From a phage: a stretch of DNA of 64,000 bases. Numbering within the stretch: position 1 is the stretch's first letter; each line of letters starts with the position of its first letter. Of this stretch, positions 2-54,834 are shown piece after piece. The notes beneath the pieces were generated by a model, which saw nothing but the letters and a program-made list of their open reading frames with translations, was not told where the DNA came from and ran no database searches. Position numbers and translations under genes: made by a program. Location of the stretch: the sequence record PX104380.1; one strand, written 5' to 3'.

Positions 2-1562
<1,561 letters not shown>

Positions 1563-1568
1563 TTTTTG

Positions 1569-1576
1569 AATAAATA
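1569..1576 (+). promoter_or_regulatory. Late-promoter-like box AATAAATA upstream of holin t (one mismatch to T4 late consensus TATAAATA)
   Basis: motif 19 nt upstream of t ATG, followed by AAGGAGG SD. Confidence 0.35.
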
Positions 1577-1594
1577 TCCTTAAAAGGAGGGTCT

Positions 1595-2251
1595 ATGGCA
1601 GCACCTAGAATATCATTTTCGCCCTCTGATATTCTATTTGGTGTTCTAGATCGCTTGTTCAAAGATAACGCTACCGGGAAAGTTCTTGCTTCCCGGGTAG
1701 CTGTCGTAATTCTTTTGTTTATGATGGCGATTGTTTGGTATAGGGGAGATAGTTTCTTTGAGTACTATAAGCAATCAAAGTATGAAACATACAGTGAAAT
1801 TATTGAAAAGGAAAGAAATGCACGCTTTGAATCTGTCGCCCTGGAACAACTCCAGATAGTTCACATATCATCTGAGGCAGACTTTAGTGCGGTGTATTCT
1901 TTCCGCCCTAAAAACTTAAACTATTTTGTCGATATTATAGCATATGAAGGAAAATTACCTTCAACAATAAGTGAAAAATCACTTGGAGGATATCCTGTTG
2001 ATAAAACTATGGATGAATATGCAGTTCATTTAAATGGACGTCATTATTATTCCAACTCAAAATTTGCTTTTTTACCAACTAAAAAGCCTACTCCCGAAAT
2101 AAACTACATATACAGTTGTCCATATTTTAATTTGGATAATATCTATGCTGGAACGATAACCATGTACTGGTATAGAAATGATCATATAAGTAATGACCGC
2201 CTTGAATCAATATGCGCCCAGGCGGCCAGAATATTAGGAAGGGCTAAATAA
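1595..2251 (+). CDS. t: Holin t
   Basis: 218 aa; N-terminus MAAPRISFSPSDILFGVLDRLFKDNATGKVLASRVAVVILLFMMAIVWY matches remembered T4 holin with one TM segment and large periplasmic domain. Confidence 0.95.
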   Translation: MAAPRISFSPSDILFGVLDRLFKDNATGKVLASRVAVVILLFMMAIVWYRGDSFFEYYKQSKYETYSEIIEKERNARFESVALEQLQIVHISSEADFSAVYSFRPKNLNYFVDIIAYEGKLPSTISEKSLGGYPVDKTMDEYAVHLNGRHYYSNSKFAFLPTKKPTPEINYIYSCPYFNLDNIYAGTITMYWYRNDHISNDRLESICAQAARILGRAK

Positions 2252-2524
2252 TTATTTGTTCGTATACATCTCTAGATATCGATATACACCCTCAAAACCC
2301 TCGTTGAATTCGTCGATGAGGGTTTTCTTATCTTCTTGAGTTAATTCAGAAACAATTTTACGGAATGAATTCTGATTTAATTTTCTACCTTCATGTGTTA
2401 CTCCAATCTCATTCAGAAATGCAATAAAATTAGCACGATTTTCAACAATATCTTCTCTGGAAAATTTAATTAAAATAGACGCAACAGTAATAATTTCACG
2501 AACTGTATCAATATTTTTATTCAT
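2252..2524 (-). CDS. asiA: Anti-sigma70 factor AsiA
   Basis: 90 aa, MNKNIDTVREIITVASILIKFSREDIVENRANFIAFLNEIGVTHEGRKL matches T4 AsiA from memory. Confidence 0.93.
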   Translation of the reverse strand: MNKNIDTVREIITVASILIKFSREDIVENRANFIAFLNEIGVTHEGRKLNQNSFRKIVSELTQEDKKTLIDEFNEGFEGVYRYLEMYTNK

Positions 2525-2685
2525 TAACTATACCACTCAATTAGTTGACTTTGTTATAATATCATCAGACGCTTGATTTGTAAACTGGTCTGTGTTATTT
2601 TCTTCAAAAATTTTTTCTACGAATTCCTTGAACGACTTACGTTCCTGAGCTACATTATGCTCGATTACTTTTTCAAGATTATGAC

Positions 2686-2964
2686 TCATTCGAAATAATC
2701 TTCAATTTCATAATCATGGACGTAAATCATTATAGTTTTTAATACATCATCAATACTTTTTCCTGGTGCTGGAATTACGTAGAAATATCCTGCTTTTGAA
2801 AGGTCTTTATAAGTTCCAATCAAGAAATCATTATTCTCGAGATGTAATTCTTCAACTAATTCATTAACAATTGAGTGGTATAAATTTGGTAGAAACTTAT
2901 ATAGCTTTTCTAGAATATCAATTTTGATTGTGTATTGAACCACAGACTGAGAATCAATAATCAT
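2686..2964 (-). CDS. arn: Anti-restriction nuclease Arn-like protein (inhibitor of McrBC)
   Basis: 92-aa acidic protein directly downstream of asiA; size and position as T4 arn; sequence identity not verified. Confidence 0.6.
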   Translation of the reverse strand: MIIDSQSVVQYTIKIDILEKLYKFLPNLYHSIVNELVEELHLENNDFLIGTYKDLSKAGYFYVIPAPGKSIDDVLKTIMIYVHDYEIEDYFE

Positions 2965-3047
2965 AGACCTTCCCCTTATGTTTCTGTTTACGATTAGAAT
3001 CTTTAAACGCTTTCTTCTTATCTTTATGAACAGAAGCTTTATTAAAA

Positions 3048-3266
3048 TTATGTTTTGCGACTAAATTGTTCATAGTGCTGAATTACCTCTCTTAAACATT
3101 TGCATGTAAATGAGAACTTTTTAGCTACACCACATTCAAATATATGTTCTCTTAAATCACGCGTATCAGTATATCCCATCTCAACAATAAAATGCCTTAT
3201 TAGATTTTTATCTTTATCATTGAGAGAATTAAAATAATCAGATTTTGAATTAATTTCCCTGGCCAA
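3048..3266 (-). CDS. Hypothetical protein (arn-motA interval)
   Basis: 72-aa ORF with CxxC...CKC cysteines; start codon uncertain. Confidence 0.45.
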   Translation of the reverse strand: MAREINSKSDYFNSLNDKDKNLIRHFIVEMGYTDTRDLREHIFECGVAKKFSFTCKCLREVIQHYEQFSRKT

Positions 3267-3546
3267 ATTGAATCACCTTCAGTTGACGTTTTAATTCTTT
3301 TATCATTTCTTCGTTCATCGCAATATAAAGATCGCGTAAAGCAGGTTTTAGCATGTCATTTATTATAGAACTAAATGGACATACATAATCTTTTCCTACG
3401 AGCTTTTTGGTGAATTCCATATCACAGAACTTAAATCCCGGCTCATTGGTATAAATTCCCCAATTAGTTGACATCATTTTATTGGCATATTCTAGTGCCT
3501 GGATTTGATTCATAATTCCATCAATTTGAAACTTTTTAATATTCAT
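3250..3546 (-). CDS. Hypothetical protein (arn-motA interval)
   Basis: 98-aa ORF, stop overlaps next gene start. Confidence 0.5.
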   Translation of the reverse strand: MNIKKFQIDGIMNQIQALEYANKMMSTNWGIYTNEPGFKFCDMEFTKKLVGKDYVCPFSSIINDMLKPALRDLYIAMNEEMIKELKRQLKVIQFGQGN

Positions 3547-4007
3547 TAGTAAAGGTCCTCAGAGTAAAGTTCTTTTTCACTACCACCACGTTCAATACGT
3601 ACTTGTCCAGCGTAAGTTGCAATAATCATTGCTTCTTCACGTGTCCAATAATTACTATATTGGTCAATAAACCCTTGGTCATCATCACAAACTTGTTGAG
3701 TAACTAATTGAGGTTTAACTACATCTAAAACTTCTGCCATATCTTTAGAATAATGACGAGCACCTGGAATAATAAGAGTTCGTCCATCTTTTAATTTAAA
3801 ACGATTAGCTGCACAGACAATTCGTCGTTGATACTTTTGGTTTTCATCCCAGTACGCAGTCTGCCAACAGATTTCAGGAACTTCTTTCAGAATATCTTCT
3901 TCTGTGCATTTATAACCATGCGCTTTAAATTTTTGAACAAGACTCTCCGGAGTCTCACGAGATAAAGGCACATTCAGCATTTTTAAACGATTAATAAATG
4001 GGTTCAT
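3546..4007 (-). CDS. Hypothetical protein (arn-motA interval)
   Basis: 153-aa ORF, ATGA-type coupling with neighbours. Confidence 0.55.
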
Positions 4008-4333
4008 TTAAACCATCCTTTAATACGCTGCCACAAAGTTTTCTGCTGAGCTTTGTTGACACCAATTGAACGAATAACTGGTTGAGATTCCTGGAATTCT
4101 TTATAATCGGCAAGGTAAATTTCGTAAGCTGCATCCGTAAATGAACTTATCGCTGCCATAAAATTATTGCGAATACCTACTGGAGCATCTTTACTTTCAC
4201 GAATAATCATGTATTTACCAGTCTTAATCTTTACAATAGTTCCAAGATAAGCTCCATGATACCAGATGTCCCAACCCTCTTGAGTAGGTTCTGCACAACG
4301 ACGAAGTTCATTAACAATTTCTAACTTGTTCAT
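4004..4333 (-). CDS. Hypothetical protein (motA.1 position)
   Basis: 109-aa ORF directly downstream of motA. Confidence 0.55.
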
Positions 4334-4343
4334 TATTTATTCC

Positions 4344-4979
4344 TCACAGTTCAGATGCTACAGTGATTACTGCTTCAATGTTTTCTGCCGAGCGTTTAAT
4401 GTCAAGATAAACATTACCGTTTTTAGCGATTTTACAAGACATTCCGATATCAGTAAATTTCTGAATATGATGTTCCATCATTTTGTATCCAAAAATTCGC
4501 ATATTTCCATTGTTGTTAATTTCAAAATTACGAATTCCGTGAGTGCGTTTTTCTAAAATAGCGAGATAGTTACTGCGATAAGTTTCAACCTTTTTAAGAA
4601 CAAATCCATTTTCATCTAAAAGTTTTAACATGAGGTCTTTATCTTCTTCCATATCAGAAGTAATCTCACGAGCTTTACGAGTTGCTCGTTTTTTCAGTAG
4701 TTCCGGAGCATTTTCCTGTGCGTATAAAGTTGCTGCATTTGAAATAATATCCTGGGCTTCACCTGTAATGATTAATCCATCACCAGATTTCTCCACCAGG
4801 CCTTTTTTAATCAATACCCCAATATTACTATTAACTACTGCGTTACCTAAATCTGGATGCACCCCACGAACTTCTGCGGCTGTAATGAAATCTTTCTTAG
4901 CAATGGTAATTAAAATCGCAGCAGTTTTTTCATTCAGAACATCGTTAGAAGCTTTGATGATGTAAGTTACTTTAGACAT
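4344..4979 (-). CDS. motA: Middle-transcription activator MotA
   Basis: 211 aa, MSKVTYIIKASNDVLNEKTAAILITIAKKDFITAAEVRGVHPDLGNAVVNSNIGVLIKKGLVEKSGDGLIITGEA matches remembered T4 MotA. Confidence 0.95.
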   Translation of the reverse strand: MSKVTYIIKASNDVLNEKTAAILITIAKKDFITAAEVRGVHPDLGNAVVNSNIGVLIKKGLVEKSGDGLIITGEAQDIISNAATLYAQENAPELLKKRATRKAREITSDMEEDKDLMLKLLDENGFVLKKVETYRSNYLAILEKRTHGIRNFEINNNGNMRIFGYKMMEHHIQKFTDIGMSCKIAKNGNVYLDIKRSAENIEAVITVASEL

Positions 4980-49789: not shown

Positions 49790-50113
49790 TTAGTCTTCTA
49801 TGATATCTCTATCATATCCAAGTGAAATGAGAGTTTCTTTGAAGTGTTTAATGTTCTTTTGTCTAGAATCATTAATGAAAATGACAGGATACCGAATATT
49901 AAGAGATGTGAATCCAGCGCGTTTAGCAAGAGATACAATCAATGGGCGATCGTACTCAATCTTACCATTATTAGTAAGAACTTTATAGAAAGTAAAAGGA
50001 GCATTGAGCTCCTTTAGAAGTTTTGTAACTGATTGACATCCAGGACAACGACCTACTTCATCTGGAATTCCATAGACTTCAATCTTATTCTTTAAGTTCG
50101 AGTTTTGTTCCAC
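49790..50113 (-). CDS. NrdH-like glutaredoxin (CPGC), non-ATG start
   Basis: redox motif GRCPGCQ; no in-frame ATG upstream of motif; GTG at 50113 with AAGGA 10 nt upstream proposed. Confidence 0.45.
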   Translation of the reverse strand: MEQNSNLKNKIEVYGIPDEVGRCPGCQSVTKLLKELNAPFTFYKVLTNNGKIEYDRPLIVSLAKRAGFTSLNIRYPVIFINDSRQKNIKHFKETLISLGYDRDIIED

Positions 50114-50396
50114 GAGAAATAATTCCTTGGTAAGCCCAATAAGGAGGATTAGCAGAATCCTCACCAGAGTTTTCTTCAGGAAAATAAACCTGGATAACGA
50201 AGCCGGATTCATCAAAGGTAAAATAAACCGTAGGCAGTTCACCTAACAAATCGGCACGAGCGTTGATTTCTTCGAGGTCTTGTTCACGTCCAGCCCAGAA
50301 GCTTGGGTTCAGACTACATTCATAGAAATAATAGTCATTACCGAACATATCAAAACCATTCCAACTCTCTACTACATACCGCTCAAAACTAATCAT
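50085..50396 (-). CDS. Hypothetical acidic protein (103 aa)
   Basis: ORF. Confidence 0.5.
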   Translation of the reverse strand: MISFERYVVESWNGFDMFGNDYYFYECSLNPSFWAGREQDLEEINARADLLGELPTVYFTFDESGFVIQVYFPEENSGEDSANPPYWAYQGIISRGTKLELKE

Positions 50397-50398
50397 AA

Positions 50399-50614
50399 TT
50401 AAGCCTTTTTATCAAGAACCGCATTCAGCTTGTTAGTAATTTTATCCAGACGCTCATTGAACTCACTAGAAGATAAGCCCTTTTCTGGAGAAATCAAACT
50501 AATTACGAAAAATATAACAATAAAAGGAATAAGGAAAATAGCTCCAACTGCCATGAACAAAAAGAATGTTACAGTTGTAAGAAAATCAGCTAAACCTTTA
50601 CGAAATTTATACAT
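50399..50614 (-). CDS. Small membrane protein (71 aa)
   Basis: ORF with TM segment FLFMAVGAIFLIPFIVIFFVISLI. Confidence 0.5.
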   Translation of the reverse strand: MYKFRKGLADFLTTVTFFLFMAVGAIFLIPFIVIFFVISLISPEKGLSSSEFNERLDKITNKLNAVLDKKA

Positions 50615-50729
50615 ATTTTACCCTTAATTGATTAACCAAGCATTGATAAGCACTAAACTATATTGCGAATAAAATTCTGGACCAAAATGAAAAATCATAT
50701 CATTTATAGTATCCATAATGTAATTCAAT

Positions 50730-51200
50730 TTAATCATGTGTCCACACCCCATCGGTATTTGACCAAAGTCGCTGATTATCTGATCCTCGCCACAGCTTTT
50801 TAGTCGGAAGATTTTTCTCATACTTCCCATCAATAATAACATCAACATATTTAAGCATTTCTAGTTGTTTAATATCTTCAAACTTATATCCTGTCCACAA
50901 CCAAATGCTTTTATTGGGATAAAGATTTTTAATAGTTTGAACCACAGAGTGAATCACGTCTCTGTTATCAGGATAAAGAGGGTCACCTCCGGTTATAGTT
51001 AATCCTTCTATATAATCATTATTCAAACATTCAATCAATTGTTCTAGTGTTTCACCAGTGAATGGAATACCATTTCTAGCATTCCATGTTGATTTATTAT
51101 AACACCCTTCGCATTTATGCAAACAACCTGTAACGAAAAGAACGACCCTGCATCCAGGGCCATTCACAAAGCAGCACGGGTATATTCTGTCATAATTCAT
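50730..51200 (-). CDS. nrdG: Anaerobic ribonucleotide reductase activase NrdG (radical SAM)
   Basis: 156 aa from ATG 51200; CxxxCxxC motif CLHKCEGCYNK. Confidence 0.88.
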   Translation of the reverse strand: MNYDRIYPCCFVNGPGCRVVLFVTGCLHKCEGCYNKSTWNARNGIPFTGETLEQLIECLNNDYIEGLTITGGDPLYPDNRDVIHSVVQTIKNLYPNKSIWLWTGYKFEDIKQLEMLKYVDVIIDGKYEKNLPTKKLWRGSDNQRLWSNTDGVWTHD

Positions 51201-52027
51201 AATAATATCCAATTTTTCCAAGCTTCATCAGTAGAATTACAGCGTTTTAGTATAAGATGTCTAGAAACTTTTATGGCATTTGAGCACTTTTTAATTGAAT
51301 CATATTTAATACCGTCAACTGAAACGGTTTTGCTCGTTGGAGAAATTTTTCCATACATTGGATTTTTTGAACCAACTTGAAGTCCTTTTAAAGCTTTTGA
51401 AAGCTTTTGTCTAGATTCCAATGACATGGGAGAATTCTTTTTACCTTCAATAATTCGCTTGCGATGAAGTTCGCGTTCTTCTTCGCTCAAAGAATTGTAA
51501 TATTTTTTAACACCGTTTGATATAGATAATTTATCTTTCTCAGACCGCTCTCCAACTAATTTACTTCTAACATCTTTTCGCTTCATAGCTATGCTTACAG
51601 CTTTATTTAAATTTGCTTGATGCTCTGGCGTACGTTTATATTTCTTTAAAGCACGTGAAATAGCTATTTTAGTTTCTACTGTTTTCTTTTTACCTTTATT
51701 TGCTAAACTATTTTTGTGGCGATGTTCAAGTGTCTGTTCATAAGCAGTTCCACCTTTTCCACCGGGTTTAATATTATATGTATTTTCTTTTAGACAATAC
51801 TCTTCGGTTACAAGTTCAGCTTCTTTATCATACATTTGTTTTTCATTATCAAAAACATGTAAAATTTCTTTATTAAAATTTTTTCTACCATATTTTAATA
51901 AAGCGGCACGAATCAATGTTCCTGATCCCATATAACCGTCATTTATGTTATCGGTGCTATGCGCACCGATATATTCCTTTGAATTAATTATATTTGTTAT
52001 TTTATAAATTATATAATACCTATGCAT
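51197..52027 (-). CDS. GIY-YIG homing endonuclease (I-TevI/Seg-like), free-standing between nrdD and nrdG
   Basis: 276 aa; N-terminal YYIIYKITNIINSKEYIGAHS...YMGSG; basic NUMOD-like repeats; overlaps nrdD stop by 8 nt and nrdG start. Confidence 0.72.
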   Translation of the reverse strand: MHRYYIIYKITNIINSKEYIGAHSTDNINDGYMGSGTLIRAALLKYGRKNFNKEILHVFDNEKQMYDKEAELVTEEYCLKENTYNIKPGGKGGTAYEQTLEHRHKNSLANKGKKKTVETKIAISRALKKYKRTPEHQANLNKAVSIAMKRKDVRSKLVGERSEKDKLSISNGVKKYYNSLSEEERELHRKRIIEGKKNSPMSLESRQKLSKALKGLQVGSKNPMYGKISPTSKTVSVDGIKYDSIKKCSNAIKVSRHLILKRCNSTDEAWKNWILL

Positions 52028-53837
52028 GTTTTACTCGTTTTACCATTTCTTTCATTTTACCTAAATTCCATGGAACAACGCTAGGAGTTCCAAGATATCC
52101 GCATGTTCTTCTTATGGTATTCATCTTTTTAGGATCAGTTTCTCCACAAATAGAACAAACAAATCCGTTTTCAGTAGGAGTCATTTCATGGGTACTTCCA
52201 CATGTAAAACATTTATCTACTGGCATATTAACACCAAAATAATCTAAATGTTGTGCAGCATAATCCCATACGGCCTCAAGACCCTTTAAGTTATTTTTCA
52301 TATCAGGAAGTTCAACATAAGAAATGTGGCCGCCTGTCGCAATGAAATGATATGGCGCTTCACGAGAAATCTTTTCAAACGGAGTAACATTTTCTTCTAC
52401 TGAAACGTGGAAACTGTTAGTGTACCAGCCTTTATCGGTAACATCTTTTACACTTCCATATTTTTCGGTATCAAGTTTACAGAAGCGATAACACAGGTTT
52501 TCAGCAGGAGTAGAATACAAGCTAAAAGCAAATCCGGTTCTTTCTGTCCACTGCTTAAGACGAGCATTCATTTTAGTTAAAATTTCTTGTCCAATATCAC
52601 GACCGACAAGAATATTCAATTCGTGAATACCAATGTATCCTAAGGACACTGAACTTCTACCGTTTTTAAATAACTCAATTATATCATCATCAGGTTTAAG
52701 ACGAACCCCGAATGCACCTTCTTGGTAAAGAATAGGAGCAACAGTCGCTTTAACTCCTTTTAAGGAACTAATTCTACACATCAAAGCTTCAAAACACAGA
52801 TCCATTCGTTCATTAAATAGCTCAACAAATTTCTGCTCATTGAATTGAGTTCCAATATAAGAATCTAATGCGATGCGAGGAAGATTCAATGTTACAACAC
52901 CAAGATTATTACGTCCATCAAGAATTTCATTACCGGTTGAATCTTTCCACACACTCAAGAAACTACGACAACCCATTGGAGAAACAGGAGTAGATGAGCC
53001 GGTGATAGCTTTATTGTTCTTAGCCGAAATGATGTCAGGATACATTCTTTTGCTTGCGCACTCTAGAGCAAGCTGTTTAATATCATAGTTCGGGTCGTCT
53101 TTATAAAGATTAACACCTTCTTCAACGAACATAACAAGTTTAGGGAAAATAGGAGTTATCCCATCACGACCAAGACCTTTAATACGATTTTTCAGAATTG
53201 CTTTCTGAATCATTCGTTCAGTCCAGTCAGTTCCCGTACCAAATGTAATTGTTACAAAAGGCGTTTGTCCGTTTGAACTAAAGAGAGTATTTACTTCATA
53301 TTCATAAGCTTGGAATGCATCGTATACATCTTTTTCTGTTTTAGATTGAGCATAATTCAACGCATCAGCGATTTGCCATTTTTCTGCATCCTCAATATGT
53401 TTTGCATAGGTGCGTTTAACATAAGGAGAAAGTACTTTATCTACATTCGCAAAAGTCGTTCCGCCGTATTGATGGGAAGCAACCTGTGCAGTAATTTGTG
53501 CCATAATTGCAGTAGCAACACCGATTGATTTAGGAGTTTCAATCTGTGCATTACCAAGCTTAAATCCGTTCTCAAGCATTCCTTTTAAATCTACTAAACA
53601 ACAATTAGTAAATGGAAGAGCAGGGGAATAATCAATATCATGGAAATGAATAATTCCGCTTTCATGCGCTTTCATAATAAAAGACGGGACCATATTTTTG
53701 GCAATGTGTTTAGACACAATACCAGCCATAAGGTCCCGTTGAGTTGGAAAAACACGAGAATCTTTATTAGCATTCTCGTTTAAAAGGTCTTTATTAGTTT
53801 TATGAATCAATCCTTCAATTTCTTTTTCAATTGTCAT
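52020..53837 (-). CDS. nrdD: Anaerobic ribonucleotide reductase NrdD, intronless
   Basis: 605 aa contiguous; glycyl-radical region RRTCGYLG and C-terminal Zn ribbon CFTCGS...CSICG. Confidence 0.95.
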   Translation of the reverse strand: MTIEKEIEGLIHKTNKDLLNENANKDSRVFPTQRDLMAGIVSKHIAKNMVPSFIMKAHESGIIHFHDIDYSPALPFTNCCLVDLKGMLENGFKLGNAQIETPKSIGVATAIMAQITAQVASHQYGGTTFANVDKVLSPYVKRTYAKHIEDAEKWQIADALNYAQSKTEKDVYDAFQAYEYEVNTLFSSNGQTPFVTITFGTGTDWTERMIQKAILKNRIKGLGRDGITPIFPKLVMFVEEGVNLYKDDPNYDIKQLALECASKRMYPDIISAKNNKAITGSSTPVSPMGCRSFLSVWKDSTGNEILDGRNNLGVVTLNLPRIALDSYIGTQFNEQKFVELFNERMDLCFEALMCRISSLKGVKATVAPILYQEGAFGVRLKPDDDIIELFKNGRSSVSLGYIGIHELNILVGRDIGQEILTKMNARLKQWTERTGFAFSLYSTPAENLCYRFCKLDTEKYGSVKDVTDKGWYTNSFHVSVEENVTPFEKISREAPYHFIATGGHISYVELPDMKNNLKGLEAVWDYAAQHLDYFGVNMPVDKCFTCGSTHEMTPTENGFVCSICGETDPKKMNTIRRTCGYLGTPSVVPWNLGKMKEMVKRVKHA

Positions 53838-54307
53838 TTTAAACTCTTTCTAAGCTGCTTCTTGAATGAAGCTATTAATTGTGTTTTGGTGTCAGATTCA
53901 TTATATTCAAATCCTCTTTGAAGCATCTCGGCAATCATTTCCTCTTTTCCTAAACGAGAAAATTCCTTTGATTTATCTCCAACAAAGTTAGGGTGAATAT
54001 TATTTTGGGTGTAATCGGATTTTAAATAAGTAAGTAAATTTTCTAACCATTCAAGATAATCAACACCTTGCCCCTTTAAGCCAGAACGATTAAATTTATG
54101 TTTCATTTGACCTTCCGCGGCATTGCAGAGATTACAAAGCAATCCACGTACCTTTCCTGCTTTTGGTCCATTTAATTCATGGTCATGGTCAAGGTGATTA
54201 GCTTGAACATCAGGATTTAATTCTCGTTGGCAAATTAAGCATTTACCATTTTGTGCATCATAAAATTTCTGTTTTTCTTCTTTATATAATTTGCCAGTCA
54301 ATAACAT
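53834..54307 (-). CDS. 49: Endonuclease VII gp49
   Basis: 157 aa; MLLTGKLYKEEKQKFYDAQNGKCLICQRELNPDVQANHLDHDHELNGPKAGKVRGLLCNLCN. Confidence 0.95.
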   Translation of the reverse strand: MLLTGKLYKEEKQKFYDAQNGKCLICQRELNPDVQANHLDHDHELNGPKAGKVRGLLCNLCNAAEGQMKHKFNRSGLKGQGVDYLEWLENLLTYLKSDYTQNNIHPNFVGDKSKEFSRLGKEEMIAEMLQRGFEYNESDTKTQLIASFKKQLRKSLK

Positions 54308-54348
54308 AATAAACCCTTACCTTAAATAGATAAGGGTATTTATTATTT

Positions 54349-54834
54349 TCAAGTATTGTAAAACATTCGATGCAATCGCTTATATTGCCGAATCTTTTGG
54401 TCAGAAAAAGAAATTTGGGTTTCAAGCCATTCAATATATTCTGCCGCAGCTTGCATCAGGTTACCTTCATAGCCATCGTTATTTTCTTGCGCAGCTAATT
54501 TAGCTAATGCGTATGAAATACGTTCACCTTGAAAATCGGCTTTAGGCTTCTGAACAACTTGATTAGTTCGCTCTACAACTTCTTCAATTTCGCCATTTTC
54601 AACGGATTCAGTATTCCATAAGCACCAATACGTAATTGGCTTATCATAGATATTAATAATCTTTCCGTCGGAAAGTTCAATTTCAATAATTCCAGTATCA
54701 GGCTCTATATCATCTTCACATTCTTTTGCAAGTTCACGAACTTTAAAGACAGTACCTGCGCTAAGTTCCGGCCAGTAATTACACAGCCCTGTATCAGCAC
54801 GATTAATTCTAAACCACTTATCTACTGTAATCAT
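54349..54834 (-). CDS. pin: Protease inhibitor Pin-like
   Basis: 161 aa from ATG 54834; directly downstream of 49 as in T4. Confidence 0.6.
   Translation of the reverse strand: MITVDKWFRINRADTGLCNYWPELSAGTVFKVRELAKECEDDIEPDTGIIEIELSDGKIINIYDKPITYWCLWNTESVENGEIEEVVERTNQVVQKPKADFQGERISYALAKLAAQENNDGYEGNLMQAAAEYIEWLETQISFSDQKIRQYKRLHRMFYNT

Follow-up and report, generated by a model that had tools for sequence, protein, structure and literature searches.

The GIY-YIG gene between nrdD and nrdG in phage record PX104380.1 is very probably segH, a known free-standing homing endonuclease gene

In the ribonucleotide reductase (RNR) operon of T-even phages, the nrdD/nrdG junction is a textbook case of a site that holds segH, mobC or neither, with an optional intron inside nrdD. 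The name segH reportedly comes from Sandegren, Nord and Sjöberg (Nucleic Acids Res 2005), who applied it to a free-standing GIY-YIG homing endonuclease gene of T4-related phages; SegH is reported to cleave DNA site-specifically near its own locus, and it reportedly also cleaves DNA that bears segH. That study is cited in a review that locates seg and mob endonucleases at nrdD/nrdG, with segH there in place of mobC (PMC2988022), and a preprint describes genomes in which the GIY-YIG gene segH takes the place of MobC (bioRxiv 10.1101/2022.08.31.505936). T4 mobC occupies the same junction in the same orientation as segH and likewise overlaps nrdD and nrdG, but it encodes a 210-aa HNH protein of an unrelated family, it opens with a copy of the first seven nrdG codons, and the nrdG 5′ half linked to it is a different one that has diverged strongly. 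I-TevI from the T4 td intron (PDB 1MK0, 1LN0) resembles SegH in catalytic fold, with the GIY/YIG hairpin and an Asn aligned, and in a common plan of nuclease, linker and C-terminal helix-turn-helix; I-TevI is intron-encoded, whereas SegH is free-standing, lacks the helix bearing R27, carries NUMOD3 repeats where I-TevI has a zinc finger and is only about 25–29% identical to the I-TevI catalytic domain. I-TevII of the T4 nrdD intron is likewise a GIY-YIG homing element that targets the nrdD operon and co-occurs with segH in some phages, for example EC128, but it is intron-borne, inserts elsewhere (53299|53300) and is absent from the 64,000-nt stretch of phage DNA analyzed here (record PX104380.1; hereafter the window). 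T4 SegE and the other Seg proteins (PF19835) share with SegH the GIY-YIG subtype and a free-standing lifestyle between conserved genes (PMC2988022), but differ in insertion locus and target gene and have only domain families in common with it.

In the window, the minus strand carries the gene order nrdD–segH–nrdG. The nrdD gene (52020–53837), called from its open reading frame and Pfam, encodes the 605-aa large subunit of the anaerobic (class III) RNR without interruption; segH (51197–52027) encodes a 276-aa free-standing GIY-YIG homing endonuclease, called from near-identity with deposited segH and a match to PHROG 314 'homing endonuclease' (E 8e-59); and nrdG (50730–51200) encodes the 156-aa radical SAM activase of the anaerobic RNR (Pfam Fer4_12, E 8e-49, and Radical_SAM). 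As a preliminary description of this DNA had stated, the 276-aa gene overlaps both the nrdD stop and the nrdG start: its ATG lies inside the final 8 nt of nrdD, ATGCATAG (52020–52027), which comprise the last codons and stop, and its TGA overlaps the nrdG ATG at 51200 as the 4-nt sequence ATGA (51197–51200), with T6 and RB3 annotated alike. The program-made list of reading frames placed the nrdG start at a TTG at 51221, which we rejected; the ATG start, giving 156 aa, matches the annotation of T6, T4 and T2. At the empty junction of T2, nrdD and nrdG meet in a simple ATGA overlap. Ungapped per-gene comparisons were used for junctions and gene identities, and yielded for nrdD 1757 of 1818 identical nt with T6 and 1720 of 1818 with T2, and for nrdG 449 of 471 with T6, 442 with T2 and 367 with T4.

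The 276-aa reading frame is, with high confidence, segH, a gene whose insertion point is precisely the nrdD/nrdG junction and which was probably spread by homing; the identification as segH is directly supported by its sequence identity, position, domain architecture, fold, motif residues, linked flanks and phage distribution. The same gene is found in RB3, LZ2, U5, T6 and PP01 (AY262138.2, AY262139.2, MH550421) at 98.7–99.3% nucleotide and 272–273 of 276 amino-acid identity, with nucleotide identity of 99.3% to T6 segH and 98.7% to the RB3 gene (AY262138.2, product 'SegH, homing endonuclease'). These T-even copies agree with the window in length, nrdD–nrdG position, overlaps and a recoded nrdD tail, and differ from it by just three or four substitutions: the proteins have the same length, with three differences from T6 (274 of 277 positions identical, stop included) and four from RB3 SegH ABI48949.1 (273 of 277, stop included). 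The substitutions fall at residues 42, 104, 115, 117, 118 and 158, are conservative and spare the invariant motif residues. The gene is annotated segH or 'SegH homing endonuclease' at the same position and orientation in RB3 (AY262138.2), LZ2 (AY262139.2), T6 and PP01. The window thus presents an ordinary case of a gene already known, and the earlier proposal of a candidate free-standing mobile endonuclease targeting nrdD or nrdG alleles of related phages gains support, as literature and GenBank both name this putative mobile element SegH homing endonuclease. An assignment as MobC or another HNH protein was rejected, as the product has no HNH Pfam match and the segH segment aligns with T4 mobC at noise level. 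In the phage collection, full-length segH occurs in about 71–73 records, T6 among them, and at identity of at least 95% across about 70 genomes, while the unrelated T4 HNH gene mobC occupies the junction in 32 records and the junction is empty in about 601, a patchy occurrence, as is typical of mobile genes.

SegH combines an N-terminal GIY-YIG catalytic domain of SegE-like subtype (residues 1–93, 51749–52027), a NUMOD3 DNA-binding repeat (residues 200–228, 51344–51430; Pfam E 3.7e-7, 30.4 bits, cut-off 20.4) and a C-terminal I-TevI-type helix-turn-helix DNA-binding domain (residues 226–273, 51209–51352). Residues 1–102 alone pass the Pfam model PF19835 SegE_GIY-YIG (30.9 bits, cut-off 25), and the general GIY-YIG model PF01541 stays below threshold (16.4 bits, cut-off 22.6, E 0.011). 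A second, weaker NUMOD3 repeat lies upstream in the linker, where the permissive Pfam threshold returns two stretches. For the C-terminus, the Pfam model I-TevI_DNA-bd scores 21.2 bits (E 2.7e-4), under its cut-off of 27, and BLASTP aligns SegH 224–276 with I-TevI 194–243 (E 3e-4). Because sequence searches of the PDB were weak, with phmmer from the single SegH sequence giving chance matches only and a profile search reaching I-TevI across the GIY-YIG hairpin alone (E 0.4), we tested the fold by structure prediction and Foldseek. An AlphaFold2 model of residues 1–93 (pLDDT 95–98) retrieved as its top three PDB matches 1MK0, 1LN0_B and 1LN0_A, all the I-TevI catalytic domain with its three-stranded sheet and helices, at probability 1.00 and TM 0.60–0.64 (normalized to target length), the next match having probability 0.09; hhalign of SegH with the same domain gave 94% probability. 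The I-TevI-like N-terminus claimed earlier is therefore borne out in fold and motifs by Foldseek and hhalign, and the C-terminal DNA-binding domain is I-TevI-like too.

We compared catalytic residues across 55 homologues. The GIY-YIG hairpin of SegH is formed by I6-I7-Y8 and Y19-I20-G21, and hhalign pairs Y8, Y19 and G21 with I-TevI Y6, Y17 and G19. Residues Y8, Y19, G21, H23, D30, Y32, G34-S35-G36, E69, Y84 and N85 are invariant among the homologues, and Y84-N85 aligns with I-TevI Y89-N90, which includes the conserved Asn N90. Candidates for the metal-binding Glu (E75 in I-TevI) lie in or just past the helix next after strand 3: every homologue has E69, 53 of 55 have E71 and 47 of 55 have E75; hhalign pairs SegH E75 with the I-TevI residue, whereas helix position favors E69. 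The expectation that the catalytic residues are present thus mostly stands: GIY, YIG and Asn are family-invariant and a Glu is clearly present, with E69 and E75 as candidate equivalents of the I-TevI residue. It fails for an aligned counterpart of I-TevI R27: hhalign finds none, I-TevI 23–31 falling in a 9-residue gap, and the AlphaFold2 model shows a loop at residues 26–36 with no helix after YIG. In the SegE-like subfamily, H23, D30, Y32 and S35 are invariant instead, and 40/41 holds a basic residue. Absence of the R27 helix is a trait of this whole subfamily and not a defect of the window copy, and SegE-like catalysis may use another constellation, composed of His23, Asp30, Tyr32, Ser35 and the basic residue.

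Sequence on both sides of segH diverges from the empty-site phage T2. The recoded 3′ end of nrdD (52020–52104) begins where the codons for the glycyl-radical motif RTCGYLG end: 34 of the 86 terminal nt differ from T2, against 64 of 1732 elsewhere in the gene (Fisher p 2e-23), and 11 of the last 22 residues are changed. Only 81 phage records have this tail, essentially the segH carriers, and a search for the donor lineage among more distant phages found no similar NrdD tail above 79.5% identity. In nrdG, a substitution cluster at nt 12–30 (51171–51189) distinguishes segH-bearing phages from T2, with differences at 8 of the first 30 nt against 21 of the remaining 441 (p 2e-4), and its pattern is common to the window, T6, RB3 and EC128. 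Both flanks fit a putative homing cassette that carried neighboring sequence along, and the locus would illustrate how selfish endonuclease genes take flanking host-gene sequence with them. If SegH does cut segH-bearing DNA, as has reportedly been observed, the divergent flanks would be hitch-hikers and not an immunity device. Alternatively, the nrdD tail and the nrdG cluster may indicate the site that SegH recognizes and have a modulating effect on self-cleavage; taken jointly with the separate proposal of a distinct SegE-like catalytic constellation, we regard this reading as rather unlikely. Neither proposal is specific to the window.

The intron of T4 nrdD has no counterpart here. T4 nrdD is interrupted by a 1033-nt group I intron carrying I-TevII, as the preliminary description stated, and the T4 junction holds mobC where the window has segH. 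The window gene is a single 605-aa frame matched over its full length by Pfam NRDD (E 6.6e-172) and also by Gly_radical. Removal of 1033 nt from T4 nrdD after exon-1 nt 538 brings the gene back into frame and yields the best alignment, which places the empty insertion site, the I-TevII homing-site region, between 53299 and 53300 on the minus strand. At this site the window shares the intronless allele of T2 and T6, and several synonymous positions just downstream distinguish it from the exon sequence of T4 and EC128. An Rfam scan of the whole window returned no match of any kind at gathering score, and one at E ≤ 1 over 50500–54400 returned nothing relevant; the same scan detects Intron_gpI in the nrdD loci of T4 (105 bits) and EC128 (98 bits). 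Lack of the intron had been put forward as a noteworthy trait, a view that does not survive comparison: the intron is present in 25 records against ~700 T-even-type records with the region in the phage collection, so an intronless nrdD is unremarkable, being the rule to which T4 is the exception.

We found no T4 late promoter (TATAAATA), MotA-box middle promoter or Shine-Dalgarno sequence ahead of or inside segH, and a sigma-70 promoter scan gave fewer sites than in shuffled sequence. Since such signals are lacking, segH translation is probably coupled to nrdD, and absence of an own promoter and Shine-Dalgarno sequence has been described for several T4 free-standing endonucleases (PMC2988022). 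Under the model we favor, segH would share a transcript with nrdD and nrdG, and coupling to the nrdD end across the 8-nt overlap would give low-level translation, yielding a protein of modular, I-TevI-like build in which an N-terminal GIY-YIG nuclease is predicted to be joined by a long helical NUMOD3 linker to the C-terminal helix-turn-helix. Cleavage activity, cut position and homing we infer or take from the literature: in a mixed infection, a co-infecting phage without segH would be cut by SegH in its nrdD/nrdG region, and recombination templated by the segH genome would repair the break and copy segH and some flank into the recipient. The flanks that travel with the gene would then be the recoded nrdD end, about 85 nt long, and the nrdG substitutions within nt 1–30, both common to all segH carriers.

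Other readings of the locus account for part of these data. The frame could be a decaying or inactive homing endonuclease remnant that persists only through its embedding between two co-translated genes, as would suit the missing aligned equivalent of the I-TevI catalytic Arg, the score under the general GIY-YIG Pfam threshold, the lack of an own promoter or Shine-Dalgarno sequence, and the annotation of defective endonuclease genes such as I-TevIII in T4. However, the window frame is full length, with 276 aa like deposited SegH and just three or four conservative differences; 17 of 17 family-invariant residues are intact; the Arg helix is missing subfamily-wide in SegE-like proteins, whose own Pfam model the domain passes; and the gene is kept at identity of at least 95% in about 70 genomes, making a remnant very unlikely. 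We give a similarly low probability to the view that SegH is kept mainly because it benefits the phage, through marker exclusion of competitors, local recombination or amplification, or nrdG regulation, with homing secondary. Precedents exist in the T6 homing endonuclease SegB, which promotes amplification of anti-defence loci according to a 2026 report (PMC13096335), and in I-TevI, which doubles as a transcriptional autorepressor (PMC2988022); segH also lies within the operon and could influence nrdG translation via the ATGA overlap. Against this, no sequence feature suggests such a role, and about 600 related phages have no gene at the junction, which indicates that segH is dispensable for nrdD/nrdG function.

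An overlooked intron that encodes the endonuclease now, or did so until recently, as with I-TevII, is scarcely credible, even though SegH shares its modular build with intron-encoded I-TevI and homologues carry the label 'group I intron endonuclease' in some databases. The Rfam scan that detects the T4 and EC128 nrdD introns has no group I match in the window, the T2 empty site is a simple ATGA gene junction, and the frame abuts and overlaps both neighboring genes, leaving no room for intron structure; a hidden intron around segH is refuted by these observations.

The significance of identifying segH here is small beyond correct annotation. The call is useful for annotating the window because some public records mislabel the gene, which appears as 'segD' in the RB3–RB10 genomes and as 'hypothetical protein' elsewhere.

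We identified the 276-aa GIY-YIG gene between nrdD and nrdG (51197–52027, minus strand) as segH, an already described gene in a well-studied locus and not a new one. A megablast search with 50700–53900 recovered 72 phage records that span the entire segment at 96–97% identity, several of which, including PP01 and T6, call the middle gene 'segH: SegH homing endonuclease'; as a query by itself the gene is fully covered in 71 records. It is 99.3% identical to T6 segH and 98.7% identical to the 2.7-kb GenBank entry 'Bacteriophage RB3 NrdD, SegH, NrdG' (AY262138.2; sister entry for phage LZ2, AY262139.2), and its product matches T6 and RB3 SegH in length with only three and four differences, respectively. 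The 2005 SegH study reportedly found that the protein is an active endonuclease whose cleavage site lies near the gene's own locus, that it cuts DNA with or without segH, and that it homes in mixed infections. The preliminary description, made from sequence alone, was right to read a free-standing mobile GIY-YIG gene here, one with nearly identical copies in T6, RB3 and some 70 further genomes. The paper naming segH (Sandegren, Nord & Sjöberg, Nucleic Acids Res, 2005) is among the works cited in a review (PMC2988022). Supporting statements come from this review and from a preprint (bioRxiv 10.1101/2022.08.31.505936), according to which segH takes the place of mobC in some genomes. Database labels for the gene vary: genome records KM606994–KM606999 and NC_025419 (RB3, RB5–RB10) call it 'segD', so that for RB3 the original deposit and the genome record conflict, and the T6 and T2 records AP018814 and AP018813 carry garbled product names, such as 'tail sheath monomer' for nrdG.

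Every gene between 47.5 and 57 kb lies on the minus strand, in the T-even order 55, 55.x, nrdH, 55.8, 55.9, nrdG, segH, nrdD, 49 and onwards. The layout first proposed is correct throughout: nrdD (52020–53837) is a single 605-aa ORF matched end to end by Pfam NRDD (E 6.6e-172) together with a glycine-radical domain, the segH ATG falls within the final 8 nt of nrdD (ATGCATAG), and the segH TGA overlaps the nrdG ATG as ATGA. The true start of nrdG (50730–51200) is the ATG at 51200, matching the T6, T4 and T2 annotations; a TTG at 51221 is an upstream extension from the mechanical ORF list. A motif scan upstream of segH found neither a Shine-Dalgarno sequence nor a promoter of the T4 late or MotA-type middle class. 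Because segH overlaps nrdD by 8 nt, it is likely co-transcribed with its neighbours and translated at a low level by coupling to nrdD, the mode discussed for segC, segF, mobA and mobC (PMC2988022). Near the 5′ end of the nrdG reading frame, some 35 nt past the start, a G+C-rich terminator-like hairpin of 11 pairs precedes a T-run (51140–51165, minus strand), and the T2 sequence there is nearly identical. A 103-aa ORF between 55.8 and nrdH (50085–50396, minus strand) has a locally raised G+C of about 0.41 and no Pfam match; it occurs in about 420 other T-even-type records, is missing from T4 and T6, and so ranks as a normal mosaic accessory gene.

Pfam analysis of SegH recovered NUMOD3 (E 3.7e-7) and, below threshold, the I-TevI DNA-binding domain at the C-terminal end; the general GIY-YIG model stayed below its cut-off (16.4 versus 22.6 bits), while residues 1–102 alone exceeded that of SegE_GIY-YIG (30.9 versus 25 bits). 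The PHROGs match is 'homing endonuclease' (E 8e-59), and many of 328 homologues from a large protein collection carry PF01541 and/or PF19835. Fifty-five of the homologues were aligned, and this alignment, also the input of an AlphaFold2 model, shows invariant Y8, Y19, G21, H23, D30, Y32, G34-S35-G36, F51, E69, V73, Y84, N85, G89, G90 and G92. Residues 1–93 are modelled at pLDDT 95–98 with a beta-beta-alpha-beta-alpha topology, and a Foldseek search of the PDB places the I-TevI catalytic domain in its first three positions (1MK0, 1LN0; probability 1.00, TM 0.60–0.64 normalised by target length), followed by a match of probability only 0.09. Profile-sequence alignment with I-TevI (94% probability, E 1e-7) pairs Y8, Y19, G21 and Y84-N85 with I-TevI Y6, Y17, G19 and Y89-N90, bearing out the suggested I-TevI-like N-terminus, and the I-TevI helix-turn-helix domain has its match in the final 50 residues of SegH (E 3e-4). 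SegH differs from I-TevI in lacking the R27 helix: I-TevI residues 23–31 fall in a 9-residue gap that leaves catalytic R27 without a counterpart in this alignment, and the model has a loop at that position. Invariant E69 and highly conserved E71 and E75 are candidate equivalents of I-TevI E75. The expected catalytic residues were thus mostly found, with four of five classical GIY-YIG motif elements present and the Arg helix absent. The missing helix is a trait of the whole SegE-like subfamily and not a lesion in this copy, and T4 SegE, namesake of the subfamily, is listed as active (PMC2988022). SegE-like GIY-YIG enzymes may have a catalytic make-up of their own, a point not specific to this window.

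Comparison with T2, which has an empty site, revealed altered sequence on both sides of segH. In nrdD, 64 of the first 1732 nt differ (3.7%) against 34 of the last 86 (40%; Fisher p 2e-23), with divergence beginning immediately past the stretch that encodes the glycyl-radical motif RTCGYLG and altering 11 of the last 22 NrdD residues (...GYLG-TPSVVPWNLGKMKEMVKRVKHA in the window, ...GYLG-NPNERGFNLGKNKEIMHRVKHQ in T2); in nrdG, 8 of the first 30 nt differ versus 21 of the remaining 441. The recoded nrdD tail and the nrdG 5′ differences are common to the window, T6, RB3 and EC128, and the tail occurs in only 81 records, essentially segH carriers. This sharing argues for a mobile unit in which segH is joined by roughly 85 nt of nrdD on one side and roughly 30 nt of nrdG on the other, flanks of the same kind as the co-converted flanks described for free-standing endonucleases (PMC2988022). 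A search of the sequence collection for similar NrdD tails gave a next best match at most 79.5% identical, and the donor lineage of the flanks is probably not among sequenced phages. SegH would be expected to recognise or cleave a site in the junction region of segH-less phages; the recoded flanks may affect SegH cleavage, a possibility not specific to this window.

The junction occurs in three states: empty, with nrdD and nrdG overlapping by ATGA (601 records with an uninterrupted junction, including T2); occupied by mobC, a 210-aa HNH gene unrelated to segH (32 records, including T4); or occupied by segH (about 71–73 records, including T6, RB3 and the window). Such patchy, mutually exclusive occupancy is as expected for mobile endonuclease genes. 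In T4, mobC codons 1–7 (MNYDRIY; T4 locus 4519–4539) duplicate nrdG codons 1–7 (3897–3917, equivalent to window 51180–51200), so the mobC cassette appears to have entered immediately within the start of nrdG and to have restored that start. T4 nrdG is only 57–81% identical to the window across 50870–51170 (nrdG nt ~30–330) and 98–99% identical downstream, unlike T2 and T6 nrdG, which match throughout; the strong divergence over the first two-thirds of the T4 gene seems to go with mobC and not with segH.

As first described, nrdD is intronless. Rfam at gathering thresholds gave no match in the whole 64-kb window, and a permissive scan of 50500–54400 found nothing relevant, while the same scan detected Intron_gpI in the T4 nrdD locus (105 bits) and in EC128 (98 bits). 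The intron and segH are independent, because EC128 and a few other phages (FL23, FL44, RPN226, SYGD1) carry both; in such phages (EC128 locus coordinates 998–4671) the intron with I-TevII and segH place two independent GIY-YIG homing elements in a 3-kb stretch of one operon. With a full-length intron in only 25 phage records, against about 700 in which the nrdD/nrdG region is at least 90% identical, an intron in nrdD is the rare state and intronless nrdD the norm. By alignment, the 1033-nt T4 intron would map between window bases 53300 and 53299, and the window shares its intronless allele with T2 and T6. Just 3′ of this empty site (53235–53299), 8 of 65 positions distinguish the intronless allele from T4/EC128 exon 2; all of them lie in a cluster beside the insertion site, and they may influence susceptibility to I-TevII.
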